49,193 nucleotides of DNA from a virus. Lineage: Duplodnaviria; Caudoviricetes. Each line of letters opens with the position of its first letter. Position 1 is the first letter of the stretch. The notes beneath the pieces are model-generated. The model did not search any database. It worked only from the letters and a program-made list of their open reading frames with translations, and was not told where the DNA came from. Positions 2,802 through 37,295 of the stretch are shown here, one piece after another. The translations under genes were made by a program, and so were the position numbers. Where the stretch lies: IMG/VR virus record IMGVR_UViG_3300028293_000009, positions 1-49,193 of that record; one strand, written 5' to 3'.

Positions 2802-2995
2802 TGAAGGCCTGGATCGTCTGGCTCGACCCGGCGGACAACGACCGCCCGCACTGGGTCAGGGTCGACGACGTCGCCGTCCCCGCCGTCCAGCAGGTCATCG
2901 ACGGGATCCGCGGCCGCGGCGGACGCGAGCAACCACCACCCGTAGGTCCGACCACACCGGAAACCACAACCTGTGGTGTACGGAGCCCGAGTTGA
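2801..2995 (+). CDS. hypothetical protein
   Basis: GTG start overlapping the HNH stop; last gene of the + operon. Confidence 0.45.
   Translation: MKAWIVWLDPADNDRPHWVRVDDVAVPAVQQVIDGIRGRGGREQPPPVGPTTPETTTCGVRSPS
2933..2979. promoter_or_regulatory. tandem NrdR-box-like operator pair 1
   Basis: CCACCACCCGTAGGTC (2933) and CCACAACCTGTGGTGT (2964), 31 bp apart; resembles the NrdR consensus acaCwAtATaTwGtgt; a second pair lies at 45822/45854. Confidence 0.5.
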
Positions 2996-3020
2996 CACCT
3001 ATGGACACGGTCGTTACGGT
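2992..3020 (+). promoter_or_regulatory. sigma70-type promoter
   Basis: TTGACA-N17-TACGGT. Confidence 0.6.
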
Positions 3021-3026
3021 CTCCAC

Positions 3027-3340
3027 CCGACCGCCGAAGCGAAGCTGCACGCGCGCCACGGCCGGTCCTGGAGTGCGCGAGTCGCCGGCGCTGGACACGG
3101 CCGCCGGCGACACCTTCCAGCTCAGGACTCGGGCCGCCACCTGTGCTACATCGCGGGCAACCGCGAACGGCGGCGCAACTAAGCGACCCGAGCCACTGCG
3201 CTGCACCGCGCGATCGCACACTCGAGGGCCCGCTTCCCACACTCCGGGGCCCAGTTCGCATACTCGCGCCGACGACGGTCGCACGCCGCTGCAGCGCGAC
3301 CGCTGGATTCCTGGCGGTCACCGGGGGTTTTCCAGCGGCA
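3027..3340 (+). ncRNA. candidate structured non-coding RNA
   Basis: Starts just after the promoter; nested stems 3031-36/3168-73, 3081-90/3102-11, 3151-56/3161-66 (GCAA tetraloop), 3198-3205/3290-97, 3226-31/3247-52, 3300-07/3331-38; no convincing ORF. Confidence 0.4.
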
Positions 3341-3533
3341 CACGACAGGAACCAGCCATGAGCGACCAGAACAACAGCCTGAGCAGACCAGAAGCCCCCC
3401 AGGCACAACGGGGAGGACGAAACGGACGGAAACGGCACGCGCGCCGAGAACGGGGCCCCGAGAAAGGACCCCCCTGCTTCGCGCGCGCGACCCGGGCCAC
3501 CCCCCTGGTAGAGGGCCGCCCCAGGGGACGGCA

Positions 3534-3561
3534 ACTTCCGATAATGGTTCATATGTTAAGC
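3534..3561 (+). other. dif-like XerC/XerD recombination site
   Basis: ACTTCCGATAA-TGGTTC-ATATGTTAAGC has the 11-6-11 layout, an ATAA inner XerC arm and a TATGTTAA XerD arm; conspicuous AT-rich island in a convergent intergenic region. Confidence 0.65.
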
Positions 3562-3720
3562 CCACGGCCCGGCCGCGTCGGTGGCCCGACCCAACGCGCT
3601 TCGGGGCCGAGGCCATCGGTCGGGCTGACTGGCCGAGCCGGCGGACAGGATGACATCGGCGCCACACCTGCCGTGCGGCCGTGTGGTCGAGGTCGAGGCG
3701 CCGGCCTGCGGCTGCTGCCG

Positions 3721-4227
3721 CTACGCGTCGAGGTCGAGGCGCTCGCGCAGGTCGCGTCTGGCGCGGTGTACGCGGGACCGGCAGCCGGACGGCGAGTAGC
3801 CGAACTCAGCGGCGAGGTCGGCGTCGGTGGCTCCGGCGAACACGCGGCGCGCGAGCAGGTCGCCGTTGCGCAGCGTGGCGATGGCGCCGGCGATCGAATC
3901 GGGCAGGTCCTGGTCTGGGCACTCCGGCGCCGCCTGCGGCTCCGAGACCCATTCGCCGGTGGTCTCGTCGAACATGGCGGGGAACGGGCAGAGGGCGCGC
4001 CAGCGAGTCGACCTCTTGGCGGCAAGGCGCGTGCGGCGCGCGATTTGGACCATCGCCAGGGTTGAGGCGTGCACCTGGGCGCCGCGGGCGACCCACTGCC
4101 AGAAGGCGAGGACCGCTTCCTGCGCGAGGTCGTCGACGTGCGCCATCGTCCACGGGTCGCGGTAGCGGCGCAGGACTCCGGTCGCCACGTTGCGGAGCTG
4201 CTGCCAGTCGAACGAGGGCGCCGTCAT
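3721..4227 (-). CDS. ECF-type RNA polymerase sigma factor
   Basis: Region 2 motif VDDLAQEAVLAFWQ and region 4 motif DLAAEFGYSPSGCRSRVHRARRDLRERL; 168 aa; GAGGAGG RBS. Confidence 0.8.
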   Translation of the reverse strand: MTAPSFDWQQLRNVATGVLRRYRDPWTMAHVDDLAQEAVLAFWQWVARGAQVHASTLAMVQIARRTRLAAKRSTRWRALCPFPAMFDETTGEWVSEPQAAPECPDQDLPDSIAGAIATLRNGDLLARRVFAGATDADLAAEFGYSPSGCRSRVHRARRDLRERLDLDA

Positions 4228-4550
4228 GGCGCCTCCTCGTCTGCATCGCCGAAGGCGGCGCGGGCGGCGTGCGGTCCGTTAGCGCGCTCGAAGTCGTCTC
4301 GGTGCATGCCGTCGACCTTCGGGGCGCGCGGCTGCCGGTGGCGCCTGTGGTGCATCATCCACGGGAGCATGCCGAAGCGGTCCGTCGGGACCGTCAGGAG
4401 CCCGGGGTCGAGGTTGACGGACACCAGCAGGTGGTCGAGCCCGTGGTCGCGGGCGTGGTCCACAAGCGAGTTGAGACACCGGGCGGAGACAGGATGCCCC
4501 CCGGTGATGCCGGCGAGGGCGACGGCAACGTCTACGGCGTCGGGGCGCAT
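4224..4550 (-). CDS. hypothetical protein
   Basis: MRPDAVDVAVALAG...; GGAGGA RBS; stop overlaps the sigma start. Confidence 0.55.
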   Translation of the reverse strand: MRPDAVDVAVALAGITGGHPVSARCLNSLVDHARDHGLDHLLVSVNLDPGLLTVPTDRFGMLPWMMHHRRHRQPRAPKVDGMHRDDFERANGPHAARAAFGDADEEAP

Positions 4551-4552
4551 GG

Positions 4553-4804
4553 TCAGTTCCTCCCCGGTGCGGGCGGCGCCGGCGGCGGCGTGTTGTCGGC
4601 GGTGATGTCGAAGGCGACGAGGCACGCGAGGTAGTCCGCGGCGGCGCCGACGTTCTCGGCGATCAGCTCTTGGGCAACGGCGCGGAAGTGACGGAAGGCG
4701 ACGGGCTCGCCGGCGATGGTGTGTCCGAGCAGGCGGCGCCCGAACTCGATCGCGAGCGGGGCGACGAGGCGGCGGAGTGGTTGGAGGTCCGAACGGGTCG
4801 TCAT
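4553..4804 (-). CDS. hypothetical protein
   Basis: MTTRSDLQPLRRLVAPLAIEFG...; fits the operon. Confidence 0.6.
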   Translation of the reverse strand: MTTRSDLQPLRRLVAPLAIEFGRRLLGHTIAGEPVAFRHFRAVAQELIAENVGAAADYLACLVAFDITADNTPPPAPPAPGRN

Positions 4805-4814
4805 TTGGGATCCT

Positions 4815-4851
4815 GGGGGCGCCGCGGGATTGCGGATTGCTGCCCCCACAA
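4815..4851 (-). promoter_or_regulatory. duplicated leader motif, copy B
   Basis: Minus strand TTGTGGGGGCAGCAATCCGCAATCCCGCGGCGCCCCC just upstream of ATG 4804; shares CGCAATCCCGCG with 5695-5730. Confidence 0.55.
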
Positions 4852-4975
4852 GTGCGCATTCCGGCACGGCGTGTCCCCGACGCCCAGCGGGCGCCCGAGC
4901 TCGAGGGGCGCCGGGGCGGCGGTCGCGGCCTGGGCGTTCGGCTACGCGCGGCAGTCGCGGCCTGACCGCTCGGCA

Positions 4976-5272
4976 TCAGCCGCCGGCCTCGGGCTGATCG
5001 CCTGGGGACCCAAGCGGCCGGCGCCTGATGCTGATCGGAATCCGTTCCTCATCGCTCAGGTCACCGCGCATCAACCGGATGCTGATCTCCAGCGCCTCAC
5101 GTCGTGGGATCCGCTTCAGCAGGCATTCGAGCTTGGTTGCCAAGGCAAGGTTGATCTCCGAGAGGCGGAGCGCCTCGTCGAGCAAACCCGCGTCGATGTA
5201 TTCCCGGCTCACCTTCGTGAGCGTGTCGATTTGCTCGGCAACCTCGGCGATGCGGTTCCGGAGGTTCGTCAT
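4976..5272 (-). CDS. hypothetical helical protein
   Basis: MTNLRNRIAEVAEQIDTL...; ATGA coupling. Confidence 0.65.
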   Translation of the reverse strand: MTNLRNRIAEVAEQIDTLTKVSREYIDAGLLDEALRLSEINLALATKLECLLKRIPRREALEISIRLMRGDLSDEERIPISIRRRPLGSPGDQPEAGG

Positions 5273-5484
5273 TCAGGCCACCCGCGGGCCACGGCCTGAT
5301 CGCTCGGCGGGGCCGGCGGCGCGACGGCGCACAGGCCGAAGAGCCCTTCCTCGATCAACCCGAGGTCCTTGGCGTGCATGAGCAGATCGGCCAGGATCGC
5401 CGGCGCCACGGTCGAGGAGACCATGGAGTCGACGAGCAGGGCGCCGAGCTGCGCCAGCCTGCGCTCCTGTTCGCGTGGGGTCAT
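5269..5484 (-). CDS. hypothetical protein
   Basis: Coupled by 4-nt overlaps on both sides. Confidence 0.6.
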   Translation of the reverse strand: MTPREQERRLAQLGALLVDSMVSSTVAPAILADLLMHAKDLGLIEEGLFGLCAVAPPAPPSDQAVARGWPE

Positions 5485-5681
5485 GCGACGACGGCCTGCC
5501 TTCCGATGTTGGCCGCGACGATGGCCGCGGCGACCTGAGGGCAGACGCTGTTCCCGATGCGCGCGATCTGGGCGGCCTTGGACCCGCGCAACTGGTAGCT
5601 GTCGGGGAAGCCCTGGGCCCTGGCCAGCTCGCGCGGCTCCAGCGAGATCGAGGCCGGCACGATGCCGGAGTGTTGTGCCAT
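5481..5681 (-). CDS. stand-alone C-terminal fragment (motifs IX-X) of a C5-cytosine DNA methyltransferase
   Basis: LEPRELARAQGFPDSY...QIARIGNSVCPQVAAAIV; own AGGA RBS; no motif I/IV part seen in the window. Confidence 0.75.
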   Translation of the reverse strand: MAQHSGIVPASISLEPRELARAQGFPDSYQLRGSKAAQIARIGNSVCPQVAAAIVAANIGRQAVVA

Positions 5682-5694
5682 GTTCCTATCCTCC

Positions 5695-5730
5695 GGGGAG
5701 TCGCGGGATTGCGAGAGTGCTCCCCTACAA
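5695..5730 (-). promoter_or_regulatory. duplicated leader motif, copy A
   Basis: Minus strand TTGTAGGGGAGCACTCTCGCAATCCCGCGACTCCCC upstream of ATG 5681. Confidence 0.55.
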
Positions 5731-5737
5731 AGGGACG

Positions 5738-6049
5738 CTACGACGTTTTGCGTCCCGCGCCCTTCTTCGTCTTCGGCTCCTCGCTGGCCTGCTCCTCGTC
5801 GCGTGCTGGCGGTTCGTCCGCGGCCTGCTTCGCCGGCGCTGGCGCTGGCGGCTCGAGCCGGAGCAGCGGCGGGTCGGCGTCTGCGTCGTTCATCTTCGCG
5901 AGATGGTTCTTCTCTGCTCGCGCGCAGATCGCTTCGATGCGTTCTTCTGCGTCCGCGCCCTCCGTCGCCAAAACCTCAAGGACCTCGTCGGCGAAGGCCA
6001 GTCGCTCCATCAGCTGCGGCGCGTCTCCTGGTTTGCGTAGCTTCGTCAC
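5738..6049 (-). CDS. hypothetical protein, low-complexity C-terminus
   Basis: GTG start with AGGAG RBS; MTKLRKPGDAPQLMERLAFADEVLEVL... Confidence 0.6.
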   Translation of the reverse strand: MTKLRKPGDAPQLMERLAFADEVLEVLATEGADAEERIEAICARAEKNHLAKMNDADADPPLLRLEPPAPAPAKQAADEPPARDEEQASEEPKTKKGAGRKTS

Positions 6050-6116
6050 TGTGCTGCTCCTGCGGTATCTAGGGTGATAACGGGGTGTTTGCGCCGGTGC
6101 CGCCGGCGCGCGGGTT

Positions 6117-6620
6117 TCAGAGTTGGTCGGGGTCGTGCAGCGCGAGCTGGTAGGCGGCACGCTCGATACAACCCGGCTCCTTGCCGAAGTTGAGGCCTGG
6201 GCCGTCGCCGGCGAACCACAAGCGAAGGCCTCCGAAGTTGCCGGAGCCAACGTGGTGGGGCGTTCCGGCGATCGGCTCCAGCAGGTTGCTCGATGGGTCG
6301 CACTTGTCGCAGGCGGCCTGCAGCGCGTCGCTGTGCCGGCGGGCCAGGATGGCAACCGCCGAGGGGCTGTGCGAGACATCGACGAACCGGTTGCCTCCGC
6401 ACAGGATCTCGCCGGTCGCTTCGTCGCGGTCGACGCGCTCGACGGTACGGGCAATCCTCTGCGCGAGCGCGAATGGCACAGTTACGTCGCGCACCGTCAC
6501 GTACATCGTCGATCCCATACTGTAGTGATCGTGACGCACGGAGACCTGCCGCGCGTTGAAACCTGCAGCCTTGAAGGCGGCGCGCAGCTGGTCAGCGGGC
6601 GCCATGGTGTCGTTGCTCAT
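6117..6620 (-). CDS. hypothetical protein, LPD29-like domain
   Basis: LRAAFKAAGFNARQVSVRHDHYSMGSTMYVTV...RDEATGEILCGGNRFV resembles the polyvalent-protein-associated LPD29 domain; GAGGA RBS. Confidence 0.55.
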   Translation of the reverse strand: MSNDTMAPADQLRAAFKAAGFNARQVSVRHDHYSMGSTMYVTVRDVTVPFALAQRIARTVERVDRDEATGEILCGGNRFVDVSHSPSAVAILARRHSDALQAACDKCDPSSNLLEPIAGTPHHVGSGNFGGLRLWFAGDGPGLNFGKEPGCIERAAYQLALHDPDQL

Positions 6621-6666
6621 GTCGGTTCCTCTCTGGTTGTAGTGGTTGACACAGAGGGTGACCACG

Positions 6667-7077
6667 TCACTTCGCGTCCTGCCGGTGGTTCGTGTGCCAC
6701 ACAACCCAGCGGCGATACTTCTGCGCCTTGATCGCGATCCTGCGCAGCCTGGGCAGCCAGTACGAATGCCCTGGGCCCATCGGCCTGGCCGGCAGGTGCT
6801 TGAGGACCCACTCGGGCGACGTCGAGCCGCTGCAACCGACCTGGACGCCCAGTCGCAGGCGGCACACGATCTCGTTGGCCATGAGGTCGCTGACCGTGAG
6901 GATGAAGGGGGACTGGTCGATCGTCACGCCACCGTAGCCGCCGCAACCTGGGCAGTGCTCAAGGAGCTCGCGCGCCTTGCCGAGGGTCTCGTGGCCGGTG
7001 ACACCACAGACCGAGCACGGCAGCTCGCGCCCAGTCTCGAAGTGAATCCCTTGGATGAAGAAGCTGACTGTTGCCAT
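6667..7077 (-). CDS. Zn-finger hypothetical protein
   Basis: CSVCGVTG...CPGCGGYG. Confidence 0.65.
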   Translation of the reverse strand: MATVSFFIQGIHFETGRELPCSVCGVTGHETLGKARELLEHCPGCGGYGGVTIDQSPFILTVSDLMANEIVCRLRLGVQVGCSGSTSPEWVLKHLPARPMGPGHSYWLPRLRRIAIKAQKYRRWVVWHTNHRQDAK

Positions 7078-7184
7078 GGGCAACACCTGATTGAAAAGGC
7101 CGCCGGGGAACTGCTAAGGGAAGAAGGGGAGATACGAGACAGTTTTACGGCCACCGTCCGAGACCAACCCGCGGCTGAGTGTTT

Positions 7185-7508
7185 CTAGATGTCCTGCGGC
7201 TCGCGCCGCACCGTCCACTCTCCCGGCCTCTCTGGGTCAGGATAGAGGAACGAGACGGATCGGTCTTCCTGCGAGCCGTGGTAGTGAACTTGGATCATGA
7301 TCTCCTCCTCCGGGACGATGCACGTTCGCTGGTACGTGTGTGCATCTACCTGCAGGTGCTTCACGATCTCCTTTTCGAGGCGGTGGATTTCAACGCGCGC
7401 GTGCGCCTCGTCGCGCGAGGCCTCGACCGCAACGCGCGTCTGCTTGCGGTGCTCGACGACGAGCTCGCGGATGGTGGGGTGGTCCTTGATCTCGTAGGGG
7501 TTGCTCAT
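7185..7508 (-). CDS. hypothetical protein
   Basis: ATGA coupling; coiled-coil N-terminal half. Confidence 0.65.
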   Translation of the reverse strand: MSNPYEIKDHPTIRELVVEHRKQTRVAVEASRDEAHARVEIHRLEKEIVKHLQVDAHTYQRTCIVPEEEIMIQVHYHGSQEDRSVSFLYPDPERPGEWTVRREPQDI

Positions 7509-7756
7509 GGGTGGCTCACGGCCGGTTCGACGGCAATGCGCTTGGCTTCCTCGAGACGCTTGATCTCTCGCGAGATGCCGACCTGGCGCAGAGCCTCGCG
7601 CTGGACGAGATCCGTGAGTCGGTTGATCTCGTCAGGGATCTGACCTGGATCCATCGAGCCCTGCAGGCCGTGTTCGGCCTTCGCGATGGTCACCTTGTCG
7701 GACCAGTTCTTCTCGCAGGTGACGCTGATCGACACCTGGACTTGGACGTTGTCCAT
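7505..7756 (-). CDS. hypothetical protein
   Basis: AGGAGG RBS. Confidence 0.7.
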   Translation of the reverse strand: MDNVQVQVSISVTCEKNWSDKVTIAKAEHGLQGSMDPGQIPDEINRLTDLVQREALRQVGISREIKRLEEAKRIAVEPAVSHP

Positions 7757-7766
7757 TCGGTTCCTC

Positions 7767-7871
7767 CTATTGAGTGGGACAGGATTTCAGAAGCAGTAAC
7801 AGCACGATTGCCGTGACCAAGAAGCGAACTCCCCAGTAGACGGAAGCGTGCCCAACTTCACGGATCTTCAT
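7767..7871 (-). CDS. small membrane peptide
   Basis: MKIREVGHASVYWGVRFLVTAIVLLLLLKSCPTQ. Confidence 0.45.
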   Translation of the reverse strand: MKIREVGHASVYWGVRFLVTAIVLLLLLKSCPTQ

Positions 7872-7912
7872 GCTACACAATGGGGCGAACACGACAGATC
7901 GTGTCCCGGCCC

Positions 7913-8263
7913 TCACCTCTTGAGCCAATCTGGCGGCTCGGGGATGTCGATGGTCTGCCCAGCCTTGGGGTGTGTGCAATCTGCCAGGAACTGGATCCTG
8001 CCGTCAGTAACGAAGGAGTGGCAGGTGAAGCCCGAGGCGCCGCCGCGCACGAGGATGCTGGGCCGGAAGGTGGGCAGATCCAGCGATCCGTTCCAGGTCC
8101 ACTTCGGACCGTCGAGGTTGCCACCAACGTTGACGGCGTGCGGCTCGTCGCAGCCAGGGCACCAGAACCAGACGGCGACCGTGCCTGTGTCGACGAGCGG
8201 CGAGTCAGGATCCTGCGGGTTGGACCGCTGAGAGATCGGGAAGCTCACTGCGCGCGTGGTCAC
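7913..8263 (-). CDS. DUF6527-like Zn-binding protein
   Basis: WFWCPGCDEPH...WTWNGSLDLPTFRPSILV...CHSFVTDGRIQFLADCTH; GTGA coupling. Confidence 0.75.
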   Translation of the reverse strand: MTTRAVSFPISQRSNPQDPDSPLVDTGTVAVWFWCPGCDEPHAVNVGGNLDGPKWTWNGSLDLPTFRPSILVRGGASGFTCHSFVTDGRIQFLADCTHPKAGQTIDIPEPPDWLKR

Positions 8264-8388
8264 TTCTTCCGGACCTTCACCTTGCCGGTGTGGAGCTCGC
8301 TCTTGAGCTTCTTCTTCTGCGACGGGCTGAGCGGTGAGTCGTTGCTGAGCAACAGGCCGACTTGCTTCTTCGACTTGGTCTTTGGCAT
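8260..8388 (-). CDS. small basic protein
   Basis: MPKTKSKKQVGLLLSNDSPLSPSQKKKLKSELHTGKVKVRKK; GAGGA RBS. Confidence 0.6.
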   Translation of the reverse strand: MPKTKSKKQVGLLLSNDSPLSPSQKKKLKSELHTGKVKVRKK

Positions 8389-8390
8389 GG

Positions 8391-8642
8391 TCACGGTCCT
8401 CTGTGTCTTGGTCTGACAGTTTGCAGGCCTCGACGATAGCGGGCCTGCCGGTGTCTGCGCCGCCAGCGCCGGCAGATGGTGCGTACCTGATCCACGAACT
8501 CGCGCGAGACGAGCCACAGGTCGCGGCCACAGACTTGGTTCATCGCGTGGAACAAGGCCGCGAACTGACTGGGGGAGCAGTGCAGTCCGTCGGGTTCGCC
8601 GTCCGCGATGATGTCGCTCAAACCGCTTCCGAAGATGTTCAC
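8391..8642 (-). CDS. hypothetical protein
   Basis: GTG start coupled to the upstream stop. Confidence 0.55.
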   Translation of the reverse strand: MNIFGSGLSDIIADGEPDGLHCSPSQFAALFHAMNQVCGRDLWLVSREFVDQVRTICRRWRRRHRQARYRRGLQTVRPRHRGP

Positions 8643-8899
8643 AGCTGCAGGGCCTTGTCGTGGTCGTCAGCGTGCTTGCGGATGAGCCGGCCGAGCTCGA
8701 CTTGGCTGTGCAGGTATTCGAATGCCTGGGGCAGCAGGTCGTCGCGCAGGATCGTGACGATGACGTTGACGTGCAGGTCGTGGTCGTCCAGTGGCCTCAC
8801 TGGCGCCGTGCTCACGAGCGGAGCCCATCGCGCAACGGAGCCGAGCGAGGCGGCAACGGCGGCGCCGGCGAGGCGCGCAAGGAAGCCGCGGCGGTTCAT
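8639..8899 (-). CDS. twin-arginine (Tat) signal-bearing small protein
   Basis: N-terminus MNRRGFLARLAGAAVAASLG matches RRxFL plus h-region. Confidence 0.7.
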   Translation of the reverse strand: MNRRGFLARLAGAAVAASLGSVARWAPLVSTAPVRPLDDHDLHVNVIVTILRDDLLPQAFEYLHSQVELGRLIRKHADDHDKALQL

Positions 8900-9159
8900 G
8901 GCAGGCCGGTCAGGTCAGAGACCTTGCACTGGAACAGGCGGCTCAACGCAAGCAGGGCCCGCAGGTCGGGTGTGATCTCGCCGCTGCACCAACGCATCGA
9001 GGTTCTCACCCCGCGCCTTGTGGCCTGCCCGACCTTCCGGTGACTGACACCGGCGGCGACGCGCCGCTCCGCGATCCTCTTTCGGATGCCGCGGAGCAGC
9101 GTACGCCATTCCGAGCTTGGAACTGTCGCCGGAAGAATCTTGGTGTCGGCCGTTGACAT
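8896..9159 (-). CDS. XRE-family HTH transcriptional regulator (Cro/repressor-like)
   Basis: RIAERRVAAGVSHRKVGQATRRGVRTSMRWCSGEITPDLRALLALSRLFQCKVSDL; first gene of the leftward operon at a divergent junction. Confidence 0.75.
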   Translation of the reverse strand: MSTADTKILPATVPSSEWRTLLRGIRKRIAERRVAAGVSHRKVGQATRRGVRTSMRWCSGEITPDLRALLALSRLFQCKVSDLTGLP

Positions 9160-9182
9160 AGCGCAGGATCTTGTCACATGCT
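9153..9182 (+). promoter_or_regulatory. putative sigma70 promoter of the recombination operon
   Basis: TTGACA-N18-CATGCT overlapping the HTH gene start. Confidence 0.4.
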
Positions 9183-9196
9183 CCGCCACCCTTCAA

Positions 9197-9263
9197 GGGC
9201 CCGCCTGCGGAACTCGACTCCTCCCGAGACGACCTCCTTGACCGGCGCAGGCGGGCTCTCTTT
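9197..9263 (+). ncRNA. stem-loop leader/sRNA with CU-rich (anti-SD-like) loops
   Basis: 13-bp stem 9197-9209/9246-9258 followed by TCTTT; inner hairpin CTCG-ACTCCTCC-CGAG and ACCTCCTT. Confidence 0.45.
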
Positions 9264-9287
9264 CAACCAGGAGGCACAGGAACACCG

Positions 9288-9638
9288 ATGGCCCGCAAGA
9301 ACGGCAAAGCGAAGACCCAGGACAGGCAATTCATGGATGCGAGCTCCGCGCCGACCGCGAAGCAGACGGACAAGAAGGCCAAGACCTTCATGGACAAGCA
9401 GGCGGACGAGGATCGCGACGACGCGAAGGCGACGCACTGCAACAAGGGGCTGAAGTCCTGCAAGGACCTGCTCGACCAGATGTCGAAGGCCGTCGCCCAC
9501 GGCATCGCCACCGAGCACGACGGGCAGAAGCGCGCGTGTCTCGCCGAGGTCGGCGACCTGGGCAACGCCGTGCGCGATACTGCGCGCCAGGCGGTGCGTG
9601 ACTCCAAGGTCGAGAAGCGCAACCTCCAGCCGAGCTGA
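9288..9638 (+). CDS. hypothetical protein
   Basis: AGGA RBS; MARKNGKAKTQDRQF... Confidence 0.7.
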   Translation: MARKNGKAKTQDRQFMDASSAPTAKQTDKKAKTFMDKQADEDRDDAKATHCNKGLKSCKDLLDQMSKAVAHGIATEHDGQKRACLAEVGDLGNAVRDTARQAVRDSKVEKRNLQPS

Positions 9639-9642
9639 TCCA

Positions 9643-10293
9643 ATGCGAGACGACGGGAACATCATCGTGTTGGACATCGAGACCCGCCCGGACCCGGCGA
9701 TCGCCGAAGACGTCACCTGGTGGGCAAAGCAGATGGAGTCGATCGAGCCGCACGGCAGCATCAAGGATCCGATCAAGCAGGAGGCCTACCGCCAGGAGCA
9801 GCTCGACAAGAAGCGCGCGAAGATGGCGCTCTCGCCGCTGACCGGCATCGTCGTGTGTGTCGGCTGGCAATTCTGGGCCGACGAGGAAGCGAGCGTCCTC
9901 GAGACCAAGGAGCAGACTCGCAGCGGCGAGAAGGACCTGCTGGAACGCTTCGCCGCCGCCATGCGGTCCGAGGATCCAACGCTCTGGGTCGGGTGGTATC
10001 TCCGCCGCTTCGACCTGCCATTCCTCGCAGCCCGCTGCATGGTCGTCAACGCCGAGATCCCGCACCTGCCAATGCCGCGGAACTGGCAGCGGGTCGTCGA
10101 CCTTGCCCAAGACCTCGACCTCGAAGGCTCTCTGAGCCAGTGGCAATACGTGCTCGGCGGCGGGTTCAAGGAGCACGACGGCGAGGAGCTCGCCGGCCTG
10201 ACCATCCCCGAGCTGGCCGAGCACTGCCGGCAAGACGTGACCTACACCGCGGAGATGGCGCGGCGCACGCGGTTCGTCTGGGGCGCGCGATGA
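9643..10293 (+). CDS. DEDD 3'-5' exonuclease (PolB-exo/RNase H-like)
   Basis: ExoI IVLDIET, ExoII VGWYLRRFDLPFL, ExoIII HCRQDVTYT; adjacent to RecT. Confidence 0.8.
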   Translation: MRDDGNIIVLDIETRPDPAIAEDVTWWAKQMESIEPHGSIKDPIKQEAYRQEQLDKKRAKMALSPLTGIVVCVGWQFWADEEASVLETKEQTRSGEKDLLERFAAAMRSEDPTLWVGWYLRRFDLPFLAARCMVVNAEIPHLPMPRNWQRVVDLAQDLDLEGSLSQWQYVLGGGFKEHDGEELAGLTIPELAEHCRQDVTYTAEMARRTRFVWGAR

Positions 10294-10514
10294 GTCCGAA
10301 GCTCTGTGAGCATGAGCAATGCCAGCGCCCAGCGCTCGATGGGCGTGAGTTGTGCAAGGAGTGCAGTTCGTCTGCACTTGGCAACGTACCGCCAGAGGCT
10401 CTGACGGAGATGGGGCTCGTTCGCGTTGTTTGGTGCAGGGAGTGTCTGACGCTGGACAAGGTCGTGCAGAGCGGCCGCGTCCACGAACAACAAGGAGGAG
10501 AACATGGCCGATGA
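10290..10514 (+). CDS. Cys-rich hypothetical protein
   Basis: CEHEQC, CKEC, CREC. Confidence 0.6.
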   Translation: MSPKLCEHEQCQRPALDGRELCKECSSSALGNVPPEALTEMGLVRVVWCRECLTLDKVVQSGRVHEQQGGEHGR

Positions 10515-11580
10515 AGTTCAACTGACGGGTCGTTCTGGCAAACCGTGGTCGCTAACGAGCTACGTCGCCACCACGGTGAAGTCGAACGTCATGAGTCTCC
10601 TGCCAGGCGGCGAGGCCGACTGGCCTGCGTTCGAGGTCGCTCTGCGCGCCGCGGTTCTCGCGAAGCCGGCGAAGGACGGCAAGCCCGGCCTCGCGGACGC
10701 GATCGCGCGCAACCCCGAGAGCGCCCTGGTCGGCATCGTGAAGTGCGCGCAGATCGGCCTGTCGCTCAACCCGATCCACGAGCACTTCGACTTGGTGCCG
10801 CGCGCCGGCGTCGTGCACGGCGAGGTTCGCGCGAAGGGCTGGCAGCACCTTGCCATGGCCAGCGGCGCCATCGAGTTCATCATCCACGACGTCGTCTACA
10901 AGCAGGAATACAACGCCAACGTCCCCTTCTTCGATCCGATCACGCGGATGCCGAACCACGTCGCAGCCGAGTTCGAGCGCGATAACTGGAAGGACGACGA
11001 CGTCATCGGGGCCTACTGCTGCGTGAAGCTGAAGGGCCAGGACCGCCTCGTCTCGAAGGCTCTGAGCCGCGGGCAGATCAACAAGCGCCGCGCGATGGCC
11101 CAGACGGACAACGTCTGGAAGACCTGGTTCAAGGAGATGTGCATCGCGAAGGCCGACAAGCACGCATTCAAGAGCCCCGACATTCCGAAGACGCCGGCGA
11201 TGGCCGAGGCCTTGCGCGGCGACGACGAGGACGACATCACGGCGCCGGCGCTGACTCCAACGAGGGCACCTTTGCTCGCGGCAGCGCCGACGCCGATTCA
11301 CTCTTCGCCGCCGAGGAAGACTGGCGGCCAGGTCATGTTCGACGCGCGCAGCGACGAGCCTCTGCCCACCGACGAACAGCATCGCCAGGACCTGCTGCGC
11401 GCGATCGACACGGAGTGCGTGAACCAGGACATCTCCTCGGACACGCTGCGCGAAATGGGCGTCAAGCTGATCGCGCTGCCCGACGACACACAGGACTTCG
11501 ACCAAGCCCTGCAGAGTTTCTCCAGCGGCGACCTGGAAAAGCTCCTCGACCACATGATCGCCAAGAGGAACCCGACGTGA
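10504..11580 (+). CDS. recT: RecT-family single-strand annealing protein
   Basis: PESALVGIVKCAQIGLSLNP..FDLVPR..KGWQHLA..VVY..IGAYC..W..WFKEMCIAK; AGGAGG RBS. Confidence 0.85.
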   Translation: MADEVQLTGRSGKPWSLTSYVATTVKSNVMSLLPGGEADWPAFEVALRAAVLAKPAKDGKPGLADAIARNPESALVGIVKCAQIGLSLNPIHEHFDLVPRAGVVHGEVRAKGWQHLAMASGAIEFIIHDVVYKQEYNANVPFFDPITRMPNHVAAEFERDNWKDDDVIGAYCCVKLKGQDRLVSKALSRGQINKRRAMAQTDNVWKTWFKEMCIAKADKHAFKSPDIPKTPAMAEALRGDDEDDITAPALTPTRAPLLAAAPTPIHSSPPRKTGGQVMFDARSDEPLPTDEQHRQDLLRAIDTECVNQDISSDTLREMGVKLIALPDDTQDFDQALQSFSSGDLEKLLDHMIAKRNPT

Positions 11581-11801
11581 AGCCAACCGACGCCGACCTG
11601 GAGAACCGTTTCCGCTACAAGCGTCCCACCGAGGCCACCATCCCGCTGCACGCGCAGGTGACCGAGTCCACGCTCGCGCTGGCCAAGCAGCTGCGCGATA
11701 TCTGCCCGGACGGGCGGAACCTGTCGCTCGCCCTCACCCACCTCGAAGACGTGCGCATGAGGGCGAACGCGGCGATCGCGTGCGACACGCCGGCGCCATG
11801 A
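11577..11801 (+). CDS. Acb2/Tad1-like cyclic-nucleotide sponge (anti-CBASS-type)
   Basis: DLENRFRYKRP...LAKQLRDICPDGRNLSLALTHLEDVRMRANAAIA matches the helical-hairpin signature (RxxSLAxTxLExxxMxANxAI). Confidence 0.7.
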   Translation: MKPTDADLENRFRYKRPTEATIPLHAQVTESTLALAKQLRDICPDGRNLSLALTHLEDVRMRANAAIACDTPAP

Positions 11802-12025
11802 AGCTCTTCCACGTCAAAGACTCCGATCGGCCGATGTTCGTTGTCGCCGCCGACTGGCAGGATGCTCTGCAGTTGTGGAAGGCGAAGATCGAGGAGGAGA
11901 ATCCTCGCCCGGAAGATGTGATGGCCTCGGACTGGGTCATCGAGGAACCACAGGGCATCGACTTCGTTGCTGGCGCCGACGACCTGCTAATCGCCCCGCG
12001 TTTCCTGAAGGCGGGCGACCCATGA
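11798..12025 (+). CDS. hypothetical protein
   Basis: ATGA coupling. Confidence 0.65.
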   Translation: MKLFHVKDSDRPMFVVAADWQDALQLWKAKIEEENPRPEDVMASDWVIEEPQGIDFVAGADDLLIAPRFLKAGDP

Positions 12026-12240
12026 AGAAGCGCGCACCATTGCCAGTGATCGGCGCGGAGGAGGTCCTCCGCGAGGCCGCACGACAGCTCTCCGAGAGTG
12101 CAGACGTGTTCTCTCAGGCGGACAAGATCGTCGAGGCGTCGAACAACGTCGAAGCGATCCAGGACGTCGAGGAGGCGATCCGCTACATGCAGGAGGCGAT
12201 CGCCTACTACCGCGGCTGCGTGAAGGCCTACCGCAAGTGA
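12022..12240 (+). CDS. hypothetical helical protein
   Basis: ATGA coupling. Confidence 0.65.
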   Translation: MKKRAPLPVIGAEEVLREAARQLSESADVFSQADKIVEASNNVEAIQDVEEAIRYMQEAIAYYRGCVKAYRK

Positions 12241-12632
12241 GCCCCACGCAACGAGCCCTCGCCGAGTGCCGCAAGCGCGGCTGGACCGCACAGGTCGTCG
12301 AGAAGTGGGTGGCGCCAGCGCGGCGCCGCATCGACCTGTTCGGTGTGATCGACCTGATCGTCCTCGACGGTCAGGGCGGCGGCCCGCTCGGCGTGCAGAT
12401 CACGAGCGGCCAGCATCACGGGGAGCGAATCACGAAGGCCCTCGAGGAACCACGCCTGAAGCTGTGGATGCAGTCGCCGGCCCGCTTCGAAGTCTGGTCG
12501 TTCGCGAAGAGGTCAATCAAGCTGGGCGGCCCGCGCAAGGTCTGGAAGCTGCGCCGCTCTGCTGCCAATCCCGAGGCGCCACACTGGGGCGTCGAGGAGA
12601 TCAACGTCCGCGATCTGGTGCCTCCTACGTGA
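12237..12632 (+). CDS. PD-(D/E)xK nuclease, Hjc-type Holliday junction resolvase-like
   Basis: SPTQRALAECRKRGW..VVEKW..RIDLFGVIDLIVL..GVQITS. Confidence 0.7.
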   Translation: MSPTQRALAECRKRGWTAQVVEKWVAPARRRIDLFGVIDLIVLDGQGGGPLGVQITSGQHHGERITKALEEPRLKLWMQSPARFEVWSFAKRSIKLGGPRKVWKLRRSAANPEAPHWGVEEINVRDLVPPT

Positions 12633-13288
12633 AGCCATACTTCCAAGCCGAACGAGTCACGATCTACCACGGCGACTGCCGCGAGATCCTTCCGAATCTC
12701 GACGCAGTCGACGCCGTGATCACCGATCCGGTCTGGCCCAACGTCCCCGACGGACTCCTGATCGGCTGGGAAGATCCTCGGGCCTTGCTGGCGAGCGCAC
12801 TCGCCGTGCTCGGAGAAGCCAAGAGGCTCGTCGTCGTGCTGCGCAGCGACAGCGACCCGAGATTCCTCTCGGCAGTCGGAGACCGCTGGCCCTTCGTGTG
12901 CGTGCAGGCGATGGCCTACGCCCTGCCGATGTATCTCGGGCGCGTGTTGGGCGGAACCGAACTCGCTTACTGCTTCGGTGAGCCTATCCCCTCCACTCCA
13001 GGCACGCGCGTGATCCCTATGTGGGGTCCGAAGGCGCAGAACCGCCACGACAACCGCCACAACGGGCATCCGTGTGCGAGGCACATTAGCCACATGAAGT
13101 TCCTCGTCAGTTGGTGGTCTGAGGCTGGCGGCACGGTCCTCGACCCGTTCATGGGGAGCGGCAGCACGCTGCGCGCGGCCATGGACCTTGGTCGGCGAGC
13201 CGTCGGCATCGAAGTCGAGGAGCGTTACTGCGAGATCGCAGCGCGGCGCATGGCGTGTGGTTCGCTTCCGCTCGACTTTCCGGACTAG
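12629..13288 (+). CDS. amino (N6-A/N4-C) DNA methyltransferase, beta class, with DPVW catalytic variant
   Basis: [46 protein letters not shown]. Confidence 0.85.
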
Positions 13289-16200
13289 CGACCGGGCGCC
13301 GCCCAGCGAACCATCGCGTTCTGATAAGAGCGCGTGAACAGGGCCTTGGTCTCCTTCGAGGTCCCCTTCAGTGCCTCGCGGAGCTCGCCGGAGTCGGAAT
13401 ACCACAGGCTCGCGATGAGTTCGAACCGCTTCCGGTTCATGTTCTCGGACGGGTCGTCGAGAGCTCGCGCCATCAGCCGGAACGCCGTGTCGCGGTCGTA
13501 GGCGTTGATGATGTTGCGCTCGTTGCTCGTCAGCACGAGGTTGGCTGTCGCCACCTTGTTCAGCCGCTTCGCCAGGGCCCGGGCCTCGCCGCGCGTCATC
13601 TCCTCGTCCTTGGCGTAGGACTCGAACGCCGTGCGGAAGTCCTGCCGGCTCTTCTGGGCGTCCTGCAGCAACTGCTCTGCGGTGGCCGGCTCGCGCGCGG
13701 TCGCGGCCTCGCGCTCGAGCGTCATGCCGTGGCGGATCGACTTCTCCATCTCGTAGCTGGCCGTCTTCGCTGAGGCCGCCTTCATCGCGTCGCGCATCGG
13801 GCCTAGAACGCTGTTCTGGATGCGCTCGATCGCCTGGTCAATGTCGGGCCCGAGCAGGTTCCATAGGATTCGGCCCACAGCCTCGCCCTTCACACGCGAC
13901 TGCGTCACGCCGGTCGCAGGGTTCTTGGTCAGGTAGAAGTTGGGGTCCGTCGGGTCCGGCACGCGACCGAAGATTTCGTTCGCCGCGCGGGCATACCAGA
14001 GGTTGCCGATCAGCGTCTTGTACCAGGCATCGCGAGCCTTCTTCGCGTCGCCCTGGAAGCTGGCGATGGCCGCCTCGTGCAGGTTGCCGAACTCCTCGAA
14101 CATCAGGGGAAGGCTCGTGCCGAACAGCGGCAGGATCGTCAGGTCGGGGATCGTGCCGATCGTGCGCGCCTTGCGCACCGCATACTCGCGCAAGACAGCC
14201 GGCGCGAACTCGGTGGCCAGGTCGACGGCCTTCTGCCTCCACTCCGGCAGCGTGCCCGCCGGATCCGCTGGATCTGCCGCCAGGTGCATCCAATGCTGCA
14301 GCTTGTGCGAGGTCCACGTCGCCATCGGGCCGAGCAGGGGGACGTCGGAGAGCGCGCCTCCGATCCAGCGCGTGTAGTCCTTGCCGCCGAGGATGCCGAG
14401 CTGCTGCATCGCGTAGGCATACATGCCGAAGTAAGCGAGACGGCCGATCCCTTTGGCGCCGTGGTGGAAGAACTGGCGCCAGTTGCTCGAACTGACCTGG
14501 GCCCACCAGCTGTAGAGCGGCTTCGTCAGTCGGCCGAGCCAGGTCTGGAAGAACTCGCTCTGTGCCAGGCGGCTACCGATGTTGCCCTGCGCGATCGCGT
14601 AGTGCATGGCGACCTTCTGCGCCTCTGCGTCCGTGGCGCCGGCGCGCCGCTGCGACATGTAGGAGCCGAGAAGCGTCTGCATCATGCCGTGCTCCTGCGC
14701 GATGCGGCGCACGTACCAGGAGAGCTTGTCGGCCGTCGTCACGCCCTTCGAGAATGCCTCTTTGGCGAACTCGTGCGCTTCGGCCCCGGTCTTTGGCATC
14801 TGCAGGTGCAGCGACTTGCCGTACCGATACTCGCGCGCCCCCTCGGTCAGATGCCCCATGGTCGACTCGCCGCTGAGGAACGAGCCGTAGGCAAACTGGA
14901 AGGCGTCGTCGAGCATCTCGCGCTCCGCCCGCTTCTTCGGGCTGAGCTTCACCAGCTTCTCCGGAGGCGTGCGCAGGCCTGCCAGGACGCTTTCCGCCCG
15001 CGCCGTCGTCTTGCCGTCGATGACGCGTAGCGTGTGCTCGCGGAGCCACCTGGCCGGATCTTCGCGCAGCTTCGCCTGGGCCCGCGCCAGGCGGATGGCG
15101 AACTCGTTGGCGAACGCGCTGGCCTCGAACGCGTTCTCGATTCCCATGCCCCCGAAGGTCGCGTTGCTCAAGGTGGTCTGCGTGATCTCCATCACGGCCG
15201 AGCCGGGGTTGGCCAAGCCAAGGATCTTGTGTCGGATCAGGGAGGCGACGCCGGTCGCGAACCGGTCCATCTTGCCGAGCACGTTGCGGCCGGTGAGCGT
15301 GCGCAGGATGTCGTCGACGTAGTCCTGGAACTCGCGCGCTCCCTCCTTGCCCTGCTCTTCGAAGATCGCCCGCATCTTGCCGCCCTTGCGGTAGGCGACG
15401 CGGCCGACGGCCTCGGACTGGAACATGACCTCGCGGAAGTGCTTCGGGAGAAGCACCTGCTTCGTGACGGGGTCCTCGCCTGGATCCAGCGACTCACCTT
15501 CGGCCAGCTCCGGCAACTGGTGCTCCACGGCGCCCGCCCGCGGCGGCTGCTCCGGGTTCACGGCCTCCTCGCGCGAGCCGAGGATCAGGATCTTGGGCTG
15601 GAAGGGCTTGTCGACGATCTTCCAACCTCCGTCGCCCCTCTCCACGGCCGCGGCCTCGCGCTCCTCGCGGGTGCCGATCAGCACGCGCGGGTCCAGGAGC
15701 TCGGCCTTCTTGCGGTCGGCAACCGTTCGGAAGTAGGCCGTCTTCTGCGGGCCGCCCTTGCCCTTCTCGAATGTGAGCTCGTAGAGCTTGCCTCCGAGCC
15801 TCTTCTTCAGGTGCGCTCGCGTCGCCGGCGACTCCTCGTCCGTCATCCACTCGACCTCGCGGCCGCCGTGCTCGAGCTCGCCGGCGCGCAGCTCCTCGGC
15901 CGTGACGACCTCCTGGCTGCCATAGAGCCGATCCATGTTGTTCTCCAGCCACTCGCTGGCCGGCACGAGACGGTAGAGTTCGCGCACGTAGTGGAAGAAC
16001 GACCGTAGAGCCGACGGGTCGCGGTTGCCGGCGGCCTCGAGCGCATTGGCGCGGCGCAGCCAGTGGCCACCGCGCAGCTGCCTGGGGTAGGGGCTGTGGA
16101 TGTGGTCGCGCACCATCTGCGGCAGGTCGTCGGCCATGCGTTCGAGCTGCTCGCGCGCCGTCTGCGGATCGGGCATCGGCATCTCGGCCTCCTCGGTGAG

Positions 16201-19200
16201 GCCGAGCGCGCGCTGCATGGCCTGCTGCTCGGAAGGGTCCTTGAGCGGCACCGCCGGTGCGTAGCCCTCTTCGCGGACGCCCCACTCGCGAGCCTCCTTG
16301 GCGCCCTCATCCTCAAGGTGCTTGATGCGCTCGCCGTGCTTCGCGAGCTTGTCCTTGAAGGCCTTGTGGGCCCGCTTCGCCTGCTCCAGCCGCTTCTGCG
16401 CCTGCTTGAGATCGTCGGGCGCTGCCTCGGAGCGGGCATCAATGGCTTCCTGCACCACGGCCTCGGAGGCCTCGACCTGCTGCTGGATCTGATCGCGGAC
16501 CTTCCCCAGGAACCGCAGGTCGCGCCTGCGGAGGATCTGGCTGGGTAGCTTGCCCGATCGAACGATGTCGAGGAGCGATCGGTACATCTCCCGGACCGTG
16601 TCCGCGAGGTCCTTCTCCTTCGGCGTCCAACCTGCCTCGAAGTCCTTCGTCCAGGCCTTCTCTTCGTTCGTCGGCTTGCTCTTGCCCTTGAGCTCGAGCC
16701 ACTTCGTGAACTGCAGGTCGCGCTCCGTGTTCTCCTTGAGGAGGTTCCGATGGAGCATCTCCATGGCCTCGTGGGCCAGCCGGTGGAGAGCGCCCGCCTC
16801 CTCGCCGGCGAGGATCGCATCGGTCTCGCCCCACTTCGACAGCCGGTCGACGAGCGTCTTGGCGGCCTTCTTCAGGGCCGTCTTCTTGCCCGCATACTTG
16901 CTGAGCACGGTCTCGGACCGCTCCCTGATGCGGCGAGCATCGCGCAGCCGGCGAGCCTCGCGCGTCCTTCCAACGAGGCGCCAAGCGGCCGCGAGCGGGA
17001 TGTCGACGCCGATGCGCATGCCCTTCAGCGCGCCCGACAGCATCCGCATGCCGCCGCGGAAGACCTTGCCGTGCGTCCAACGAGCCATCTGCCCCGCCAG
17101 CTTCGCTCCGTCCAGCAAGGTCAGGGCGACGCGTCGCGCGACCTCCGTTGGGATGATCGTCGCGCCGGACTCTCTCTGCCGCTTGTTGAGCCTCGCCAGA
17201 ATCTCGTCGGCCGTCTTGATGGCGGCCTTGGCCTTGGCCAGTCGCTCGCGGGATTTCTTGGCCTCGCGCTTCTGGAAGTCCTGCAGGTCGCTCTTGGTCT
17301 TCGACCTGCGCGCATAGCTCTCGCGACGCAGGTCGGCCTTCGCGACCTCGCCCTCGAGCTCGCCGCGCGCCGTCCCTACGGCGTCGATCGCGTCGCCGAT
17401 GTCCTTGGGGTGTAGATTGCCGGCGTCCAGGTCAGCCTTCAGGCGGGCGAAGTTGTTCTCGTAGAAGGCGGAAGCGAACTCCTCGCCGAGGCCGACGCGG
17501 CGCAGGTCCGTCTTCGGCTGCTCCTTGGACACGATGTCGAGCGGGATGCGCAGGGCTGCGAGCTCTTTGCGCACGCGGGCCTGCTCGGGCGACGGCTGCG
17601 TCTCCGGCTCGTTGCGGTTGCCGTAGAGCTTGTCGTACTGCCGCTGGGCCTCCTCGTCGCCCTGCTGGGCGCGGTCGTAGAGCTCGTTCCGGTCCTTGTC
17701 CTGGGCGGCGTCGAACAGCTTGTCGGTGAGCGTGCGCGGCTTCGGCGGCTTCTCGAGGAATAGTTCCTTCTCGGGCCGCCGCGAGAACTTCCTGGCTGGA
17801 TGCGACTCCGGCAACTTGGAGACGCGGGAGGCCTCGACCACGCTTCGCGGCACCTGCGCCTCGACGATCTCTCCCTCGACCATCCCATTGTCGAGATACC
17901 ACTGGGCCTCGGCGCGGTCGTCGGTCCACCACTTGCCCGTGGCTTCGTCGGTCGCCTTGACGTCAGGATTCCCCTCGAGCCAGTCGGGTCGGCGCTTCTC
18001 GCGCGCCTTCTCCTGGGCCCTGTAGACCGTGACCATCTCCTCTGACTTCGGCGTCTCCTCCGCCGGCATCTCGATCTCCAGGTCTGGCTTGATCTCCAGC
18101 TCCTGGGTCATCATCCGGCGCAGGTTCTGCAGCCGTTCGAGCACCTTGCGGCCGTGCGCCGTCATCGAGGCAAGCGCGGTGATCTCGTCTGCGCCCTCCA
18201 GGTCGCGCACGAGCTCGGCCAGGTCGGCGAGGGCCTTCGACCGCTTGTGCGGCCGCGAGGACGTCAGCCCCTGCTTGCCCTCCAGCTTCTTGAGGCGGTC
18301 GCGGAAGTGGTTCACGAAGTCCGCATGCGTCGTGTGGCCGAAGGACGGGTTGGTCTTGACCCACTCTTTCCACGCGGCCTCGGCGACGGCCTGCGACTTC
18401 TTGCCGGCGTCCTTGGCAGCGTTGAAGGCGTCGCGCACGGCCTCGGGGAGCGCGTCGAGCGCCGGCTTCTTCGTGGCCTTGGCCTGGTCGGTGACGAGGG
18501 CCTGCTTGTCGGTGTGTCCTGGCGCCTCGACGGCCTTGCGCGTCTCCTCCGCGACCTCTGGCGGCGGCGCCGGCCTGCGCTCCTGCAGCATCGCGCGCAC
18601 GAGCTCTTCGTTCGTCACGCCGAGCTTCTTCGTGATGAAGTCGCTGGTGTGCATCTCCTCGGGCAGGTGGTCGAGCAGCAGCGCGGCGCCCTGGGCCCAC
18701 CCCTCGTCGAAGTTGTCAGGCCGAGTGACTTCGCCATACTCGAGCAAACGCCTCTGGATGCGCTCGAGGTTCTCGGTCAGGTGCAGCGAGACGCCGCGCT
18801 CGTGGTCCTGCGCGATCGCCATCGCGTCGCGGGTCAGCTCGGCGGCGATCTCGCGGCCGCGCTCGTCGCGAACCTCCTGCTCGGTCTTTGACTCCGGCGC
18901 CTGGGCGACCTCGCCTGTGGGCACGAACTTCGCGCCCTCCATCTTCATGACTCCGATCTCGGTCATCCGCTGGAGCAGTCTGTGTGCTCGGTTTTTGCTG
19001 ATGCCCATGGCATCGCCGAGCGTGCGGGCCGAGTGAGTGCCGCCATGGCGGACGGCGTCGATCGCTCGCTGCAGCTCGTCGTCGGCCGCCGGGCCCTGCT
19101 GCTCGACGTAGTGGTCGTACTCGCGCTGCATCTCGGCTTGGCTGGCCTCGTCCTGCACGCTCGTCACGCGCTTCCCCTCAACAACGTCGCGCAGCATCTC

Positions 19201-22071: not shown

Positions 22072-22074
22072 ATG

Positions 22075-24234: not shown

Positions 24235-24243
24235 GCCCGAATC

Positions 24244-24564: not shown

Positions 24565-24575
24565 GCCGCCGGATG

Positions 24576-24956: not shown

Positions 24957-24997
24957 TGTTCCACATAGGCCGAAAGTGAGAATCGGGTGATGACCTG

Positions 24998-25660: not shown

Positions 25661-25664
25661 TGGG

Positions 25665-36210: not shown

Positions 36211-36225
36211 ACCCTACCTCCGAGG

Positions 36226-37287: not shown

Positions 37288-37295
37288 GTCGTCTC

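Follow-up and report, generated by a model that had tools for sequence, protein, structure and literature searches.

Exploitation of the host recombinases XerC and XerD has been described for plasmids, for filamentous and tailless phages, for satellites and for islands. In phage P1, which encodes its own recombinase, Cre, one loxP site per phage genome serves to circularise redundant DNA and to resolve dimers. Here, we describe a 28-bp dif-like sequence in a tailed phage genome, IMG/VR record IMGVR_UViG_3300028293_000009, together with a winged helix inside a giant protein of the same phage that resembles the gamma domain of the bacterial protein FtsK. The stretch analysed, referred to below as the window, is the whole virus record of 49,193 bases (CheckV completeness 100%; GC content ≈66%). 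The explanation that we favour, with about even confidence, is that host XerC and XerD use the 28-mer to recombine the phage's own DNA copies, and that the winged helix is a descendant of FtsK gamma that binds DNA and does not activate XerD.

For the Xer sites of Acinetobacter plasmids (xrs or pdif), the central region sets the compatibility between sites, and the TTAT motif matters for cutting: an xrs site that departs from TTAT was uncut (PMC11705084). The dif-carrying phage of another study is an inovirus (bioRxiv 10.1101/633727). Literature searches listed no paper, judged by its title or the opening of its abstract, on a conserved dif-like site in a lineage of tailed phages that lack an integrase.

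The dif-like site and its counterparts

The site consists of three parts and lies in an intergenic gap:

3534–3544, + strand: XerC-type arm ACTTCCGATAA, sharing 9 of 11 positions with B. subtilis dif
3545–3550, + strand: 6-bp central spacer TGGTTC, different in each relative
3551–3561, + strand: XerD-type arm ATATGTTAAGC, sharing 8 of 11 positions with E. coli dif, with its first base off the TTAT consensus
2802–3720, unstranded: non-coding gap between converging HNH and sigma-like genes, holding the site and three C6 runs (at about 3395, 3469 and 3500)

The complete 28-mer at 3534–3561, ACTTCCGATAA TGGTTC ATATGTTAAGC, has an 11-6-11 layout. The dif sequences used for comparison and three seed sites were taken from PMC3025954. 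A matrix made from the three published seeds gave the 28-mer a score of 25.3 bits, while the best other place reached 10.8 bits and the best of 10 shuffles 16.0 bits. (A second shuffle result, 0 of 100, lacks independence, its pattern having been fitted to the 28-mer.) The reading frames that overlie the site have a third-position GC content of 0.67–0.78 and flat first and second positions, compared to 0.89–0.92 at the third position in the genes for the major capsid protein, RecT, the sigma factor and the giant protein. Because these frames lack the codon bias of real genes, the region was judged to be non-coding. There was no Rfam match in the window, and no match to a sigma-70 promoter or a terminator between 2700 and 4300. 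The dif-like 28-mer named in a preliminary description of this DNA was thus borne out, as was the absence of a tyrosine or serine recombinase, as far as this was tested: a six-frame search of the complete window record with PF00589, PF00239 and PF07508 gave no matches. The site-bearing relatives, which were searched for PF00589 only, lacked that family as well.

Relatives were collected with a capsid profile, which returned 20 viral loci, five of them in records at least 90% complete. G001, G002, G004 and G007 are complete close relatives of the window (G000), and G013 is a partial one whose giant open reading frame (ORF) is whole; G008 is identical to G007 and was left out of the phage counts. 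A total of 25 sequences were scored with a family matrix that combined the three published seeds with the other family sites, the sequence's own site being left out. Seven sequences, including G008, scored at least 21.7 bits, and for each of these none of 20 simulated genomes reached the score of the site:

G000 (the window): 31.6 bits, against a null maximum of 15.9 bits
G001: TGTTCCGATAA CGGTTC TTATGTTGTCC, 25.2 bits
G002: GCTTCTGATAA TGCTCA TTATGCTGTGC, 21.7 bits
G004: ACTTCCGATAA GGTGCA GTACGTAAAGC, 25.7 bits, with an XerC arm identical to that of the window
G007: GGTTCTGATAA TGCTCG GTATGTTGTGC, 28.5 bits, with the same site in G008
G013: ACGTCCAATAA TAACTA TTATGTTATGT, 26.0 bits

The six phages have six different spacers, and a TTCYGATAA core in the XerC arm is common to G001, G002 and G007. 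All four complete close relatives have a single site per genome. The site lies 8–11 kb beyond the giant gene and in the same orientation in the four closest genomes, and is inverted relative to the virion genes in G007 and G013; no small gene common to the site-bearing genomes was found by the site. We conclude from these sequence comparisons that the 28-mer is a lineage-conserved dif-like site, of putative Xer type, in integrase-less podophages.

Weaker matrix matches were dropped before counting (G015, 19.6 bits; G019, 19.4 bits; DS1, 19.2 bits; G021, 13.6 bits; G022, 12.1 bits). Those in G015, G021, G022 and DS1 sit inside long or conserved ORFs, and that in G019 was judged to be coding from its flanks only. 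Among the 25 sequences, no site above the null was found in G003, G006, G012, G014, G017, G020, G025, Jasmine, Shocker, ctLwi270, L087, L091 or L092, several of which are fragments. The distant relatives G015 and G020, which have no counted site, carry tyrosine integrases of their own. A loose family pattern matched 47 viral stretches, mostly AT-rich and apparently by chance, and gave no identifiable new family member.

The same sequence could be expected of a site that is bound and not recombined (a XerC/D decoy or a loading site, for example one that stops FtsK or unloads SMC), or of a fading relic. The outer bases of the XerD arm and the spacers drift freely, the window, G004 and G007 carry a disrupted TTAT motif (ATAA-N6-TTAT is intact in G001, G002 and G013), and XerD is described as binding dif-like loci in recombination-independent roles (PMC9226527). 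However, the 11-6-11 spacing and both inner halves have been kept in phages whose capsids are only 35–67% identical and whose flanks and neighbouring genes are unshared. Moreover, loci with a described binding-only role carry arms of the XerD type; in the present phages, it is the XerC arm that is best kept. We consider a binding-only or relic site quite unlikely.

The inner motif of the window site is ATAA-N6-ATAT rather than an intact ATAA-N6-TTAT, and the same variant was present in 27 stretches of bacterial genomes, as ACTTCCGATAA-N6-ATATGTTAA arms around varied spacers. None of these 27 sites has the TGGTTC spacer, and the window arm with its spacer was absent from 401 Acidobacteriota genomes. 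Five of the bacterial genomes hold 3 to 24 related sites each, again with varied spacers, resembling the pdif/xrs arrays of plasmids. In G029 and G031 (Tectomicrobia), G030 (Dehalococcoidia) and G028 (Terriglobia), there are 4–24 ACTTCCGATAA-N6 sites, which differ in spacer and XerD arm and are often close to one another; these arrays look like pdif-like modules outside Acinetobacter. Similar unannotated sites occur on Planococcus and Staphylococcus plasmids. Related strict arms were also found in 12 other viral contigs (L001–L012), four of them complete, which include complete records of 39, 50 and 216 kb and a giant-virus bin; PF00589 matched none of the 12. The Leptospira phage LalZ_80412 (L303, 3001–3024) matches the site weakly over 24 nt, in a gap just past a ParB-like gene, and 20 Leptospira plasmids also match the site. 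Finally, L300, the end of a provirus record (G082) that has its own tyrosine recombinases, carries a dif-like match at its extreme end.

Three of the six G6/C6 runs of the window genome are within 300 nt of the site. Such runs, often CCCCC(T/A)G, occur at most 300 nt from the site in five of the six phages (the window, G001, G002, G007 and G013), where 0.03–0.36 would be expected per genome. The runs might mark a packaging end, but Jasmine and Shocker, whose terminal repeats are known, have no such runs at their left ends. In G001, an FtsK-orienting polar sequence (KOPS) is located 120 nt upstream of the site and points at it.

The winged helix of the giant protein

The second element lies in the last gene of the virion module:

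13285–22071, − strand: gene for a giant protein of 2,928 residues, probably internal or ejected and of polyvalent type
18901–19092, − strand: winged helix, residues ≈994–1057, a putative diverged descendant of FtsK gamma
19054–19488, − strand: unnamed domain just before the winged helix, common to other giant phage-type proteins
18580–18798, − strand: segment after the winged helix, common to G001 and G002, which fixes the orthologous position

Orthologues of the giant protein in G001, G002 and G004 have 2,500–2,800 residues, and blastp aligned the segment after the winged helix with its G001 and G002 counterparts at ≈39% identity (E 1e-13 and 9e-11). The unnamed domain had four matches among 1.84 billion representatives, with the best stretches within query residues 5–151; the matched proteins are 2,100–2,300 residues long and carry LPD22, and two of them also ART-PolyVal. 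The window gene product is a giant multidomain protein among the late virion genes that has domains in common with polyvalent proteins, and its size, position and shared domains suggest an ejection or polyvalent-type protein. Residues ≈34–122 (21706–21970, − strand), for which there is no Pfam name, are also present in the giant proteins of G001, G002 and G004.

AlphaFold predicted three helices and a beta-wing for the segment, with a mean pLDDT of 83.6. Its score against FtsK_gamma (PF09397) was 16.1 bits at a cut-off of 30.6 bits, lower than its scores against HTH_IclR (18.5 bits) and MarR_2 (18.4 bits). There was no FtsK gamma among the Foldseek matches listed. With VIA-align, the gamma domain of P. 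aeruginosa FtsK (2ve8) came second (Z 9.1, rmsd 3.7, 62 aligned residues), level with Z-alpha and further winged helices. No match of at least 0.9 came from the ESM Atlas, and a search with the giant-protein segment found only itself. The orthologous domains reached 46.4 bits in G004, 35.1 bits in G002 and 14.7 bits in G001 (42 and 30.4 bits for G004 and G002 by hmmscan), and the G004 domain matched the E. coli and P. aeruginosa gamma structures, with the XerD–gamma crystal 5DCF at E 7e-8. When a profile of the three relatives' domains was used in a leave-one-out search, the window segment was the only match (E 2.5e-6). The mean alignment score to true gamma was lowest for the window (36.5) and was 82.0 for G004; the domain tree had very long branches and did not resolve. 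Since the orthologues in two relatives score as FtsK gamma, we accept, on sequence grounds, that the winged helix of the window is a descendant of FtsK gamma.

The preliminary description had placed an FtsK gamma-like winged helix-turn-helix at 18943–19086 (residues 996–1043). The fold stands, and so does the descent by way of the relatives; the score of the segment itself, below the cut-off and no better than those of HTH_IclR and MarR_2, goes some way towards the generic winged helix that the same description had named as its refutation, yet the domain is gamma-derived. The proposed bounds fall within the winged helix and leave out the wing, which runs to ≈18901.

The function first suggested for the domain was that of a gamma mimic that activates XerD. 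In the E. coli crystal structure, the gamma residues that contact XerD are Q1288, R1289, R1292, I1293, G1294 and N1296 (PMC5052618, Table 1). The salt bridge between R1289 and Glu184 of XerD is critical, R1289E is the most damaging change, and Arg1297 was used as a non-contact control (PMC5052618). Two of the six contacts are kept in the window (I and N), and none, one and three in the relatives. The 1288–1289 pair is GD in the window, AE in G001, QR in G004 and QK in the remaining domain, the Gln-Arg surface being kept in only one of the four. In the FtsKs of Terriglobia (27 parsed of 29 loci), Q1288 and R1289 were present in 27 of 27, R1292 in 16 and N1296 in none. (E. coli XerD and FtsKs of this one class serve here as stand-ins and may not match those of the host.) All four phages have an Arg in place of the invariant Ser1285, and all keep Leu1287, Arg1297 and Ala1298, residues that appear to make up a helix-turn-helix pattern for DNA binding. 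Among polyvalent proteins, the FtsK winged helix-turn-helix is one of the infrequent domains predicted to bind dsDNA (PMC5512222). The window domain is likely to be a DNA-binding module rather than a XerD activator, and mimicry of gamma by the window phage, with Asp at R1289 and the Gln-Arg surface lost, found no support.

A giant protein injected with the DNA might nevertheless bring a gamma domain into contact with XerD and so fire the phage site independently of cell division, in the way that XafT serves TLC. The domain does come from FtsK gamma and is encoded by the four closest complete genomes, all of which have the site. G004 keeps Gln-Arg as well as its match to 5DCF, fusing a gamma peptide of 9 residues to XerC is enough in E. 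coli (PMC5052618), and the XerD surface of the host could differ from that of E. coli. However, Arg1289 has been replaced by Asp in the window and by Glu, the most damaging substitution, in G001, and the window domain is the one furthest from true gamma. The co-occurrence of site and domain anticipated in relatives was found in all four domain carriers and failed in the site-bearing G007 (complete) and G013 (partial), which lack the domain. (The giant ORF of G007 is broken across contig ends inside a tandem repeat, where a small gap is possible.) In the 12 unrelated viral records with strict arms, the gamma domain was absent above the cut-off, with one weak match of 15.7 bits. Furthermore, the four carriers form one close group, and their co-occurrence with the site therefore counts as one event. 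The link between site and domain is weak, and we find firing of the site by an injected gamma domain improbable; a co-injected activator is unlikely for the window phage but conceivable for the relative G004, which keeps Gln-Arg.

A historical variant, which we think unlikely, is that the ancestor of the clade and its Gln-Arg members (G004) took FtsK gamma into the co-injected protein as a XerD activator, firing host XerCD just after entry despite a poor XerD arm, and that window-type lineages later regained a near-consensus XerD arm while the activator surface decayed. Set side by side, the four domains and arms roughly follow this sequence.

Possible uses of the site

In the self-recombination that we favour, the phage DNA would circularise after entry, and replication together with RecT-driven recombination would produce dimers. 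In each dimer, the site would be present twice, as direct repeats with the same spacer, and host XerCD, switched on by host FtsK or through an FtsK-independent route, could resolve these in the manner of single xrs sites on plasmids. Complete crossover with the dif of the host or with another phage would be disfavoured by a spacer specific to each phage. Terminal redundancy of the packaged DNA across the site, if present, would let the same reaction bring about circularisation. A single capture in the ancestor of the four closest phages probably added the gamma domain to the co-injected polyvalent protein as a dsDNA-binding module, and the domain has since drifted towards a generic SxRxL...LG(V/I)S..RA helix-turn-helix. 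We prefer self-recombination because the spacers are phage-specific, because TLC and the gonococcal genetic island (GGI) keep the host central region, and because no junction or close prophage was found.

The site could instead be an attP, and the phages tailed integrative mobile elements that make use of Xer (IMEXs), which would integrate at host dif through XerCD with the help of host FtsK or an unrecognised activator, the winged helix being incidental. The window encodes a Cro/CI-type regulator but no integrase, and neither replicon nor partition genes were recognised in it. VGJ is known to integrate despite a partial mismatch in the central region (PMC5357621). In TLC and GGI, however, the central region is homologous to host dif (PMC5357621), compared to six spacers in the six phages here. 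The junctions between phage and host dif that the preliminary description had envisaged did not turn up: none was listed at the site in four soil runs (contigs drop rare forms), where a contig of 48,992 nt spans the site and neither a joint nor a loose end is listed there, and the 401 Acidobacteriota genomes contained no close prophage and only two distant capsid matches. The 20 capsid relatives include just one provirus, G020, a distant one that encodes an integrase of its own and lacks the site. A search with the left flank of G007 found G007 alone. DUF3653, which we take to be XafT, was found in none of five genomes; that term is absent from the passages of PMC9226527 used here. These negatives on junctions and prophages are weak, since the host is not identified and rare forms are lost from contigs. 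Overall, integration at host dif seems to us somewhat unlikely.

Several observations weigh against self-recombination. The XerD arm of the window departs from TTAT, which counts against full activity, and KOPS octamers show no consistent polarity towards the site (towards/away counts 1/1, 6/3, 4/2, 5/1 and 3/5). The circular replicating stage is an assumption, as no partition, Rep, primase or polymerase gene was recognised. The integrating elements TLC and GGI are marked by a conserved XerC arm paired with a divergent XerD arm, as seen in TLC attP and difGGI (PMC5357621). The contig G008, otherwise identical to G007 16377–32854, starts 2 nt before the XerC arm (G008:C1:1-30), as a junction would cause; this start may be a recombination junction or a genome end. 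The domain was never found without the site (4 of 4 carriers), and G004, whose domain is the most FtsK-like, has the XerD arm that is most degenerate. When the matrix was limited to the published seeds, the window and G004 alone exceeded the shuffles, while G001 (18.0 bits), G002 (13.5 bits) and G007 (13.1 bits, its second-best place) did not; part of the support for conservation of the site therefore comes from the family matrix. A strict dif pattern, too strict for the XerD arms of these phages and rejected for that reason, matched 5 of the 20 capsid relatives and none of the four complete close ones.

If the site works, the absence of an integrase would no longer equate to the absence of site-specific recombination in tailed phages, and lifestyle calls based on gene content would miss a class. 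The four orthologous domains, ranging from near-intact gamma to a generic winged helix, would provide a natural series on whether a phage made FtsK gamma into an activator.

Genome context and comparison with known systems

Other features of the window are as follows:

34813–42284, − strand: genes typical of a short-tailed (P22/SU10-type) phage, for the major capsid protein, the portal and a split terminase, from Pfam and PHROG matches; used to find relatives
9598–11580, + strand: PolB-type 3'-5' exonuclease and RecT annealase, from Pfam and PHROG matches; genes for homologous recombination, which would give rise to multimers of circular DNA
8896–9189, − strand: Cro/CI-type helix-turn-helix (HTH) regulator (HTH_31, E 8e-5; DicA-like, E 8e-5), divergent from the exonuclease–RecT cluster
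3721–4227, − strand: extracytoplasmic function (ECF)-like sigma factor, ending 160 nt from the site

The gene content thus comprises a P22-type portal, an SU10-type adaptor and capsid, a two-ORF terminase, RecT, a PolB-type exonuclease, an ECF-like sigma factor and a Cro/CI-type HTH protein. Family searches covered 54 + 27 ORFs, hand-picked from the 345 in the window, and yielded no recognisable gene for a polymerase, a primase, Rep or partition. RecT family members are present in all four of the closest genomes, and the ECF-like sigma factor had no homologue in the relatives. Four soil metagenome runs contain the window stretch; one may be the run from which it came, and one has only a small share of it. 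Searches for more relatives with the terminase, the portal and the giant protein, and in metagenomes, added only fragments or known genomes; the cultured relatives are distant actinobacterial phages with a capsid identity of 26–30%.

The large terminase is split into ATPase and nuclease ORFs (40366–42284, − strand, in the window) in all nine genomes compared (the window, G001, G002, G003, G004, G006, G007, G013 and G021), and in seven of them it is preceded by a GroES gene. This could be either a conserved split or a programmed frameshift. An ORF at 48632–49193 and 1–100, ending in a long (Ala)n/Tyr repeat, appears to cross the record ends, which suggests that the genome is circular or permuted and that the record was broken at the repeat. 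A C-terminal fragment of a C5 cytosine methylase is encoded at 5481–5681 (− strand), and an N4/N6 methylase at 12266–13288 (+ strand).

The phage site has the 11-6-11 layout of the chromosomal dif/XerCD/FtsK system of E. coli and B. subtilis and, like it, is present in one copy per replicon (PMC3025954, PMC5052618). It differs in its location on a 49-kb phage, its GC-richer and varying spacer, its XerD arm off TTAT and the lack of KOPS polarity. The plasmid xrs/pdif sites of Acinetobacter (PMC11705084) are sites for host XerCD, as is predicted for the phage site, with a variable central region, on a mobile replicon without its own recombinase. The phage site, however, is single and does not belong to modules that flank cargo, and no plasmid replication or partition genes were recognised in the phage. 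The IMEXs (TLC with XafT, VGJ, CTX and GGI) also combine the lack of an integrase with a dif-like site and a conserved XerC arm, to which the relatives of the window add a divergent XerD arm. Unlike these, the present elements are tailed dsDNA phages with no DUF3653, no small gene in common by the site, unconserved spacers and no integrated copy found.

The FtsK winged helix-turn-helix of polyvalent proteins (Iyer et al. 2017, PMC5512222) similarly occurs in a giant protein of the late region and in only some members of a family. In the present phages, its decay can be traced over four orthologues, and the genomes have a dif-like site as well; the passages of that paper drawn on here link no winged helix-turn-helix to Xer. 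As in the Cre/loxP system of P1, there is one site per genome, and the recombinase would here be host XerCD rather than a phage-encoded enzyme.

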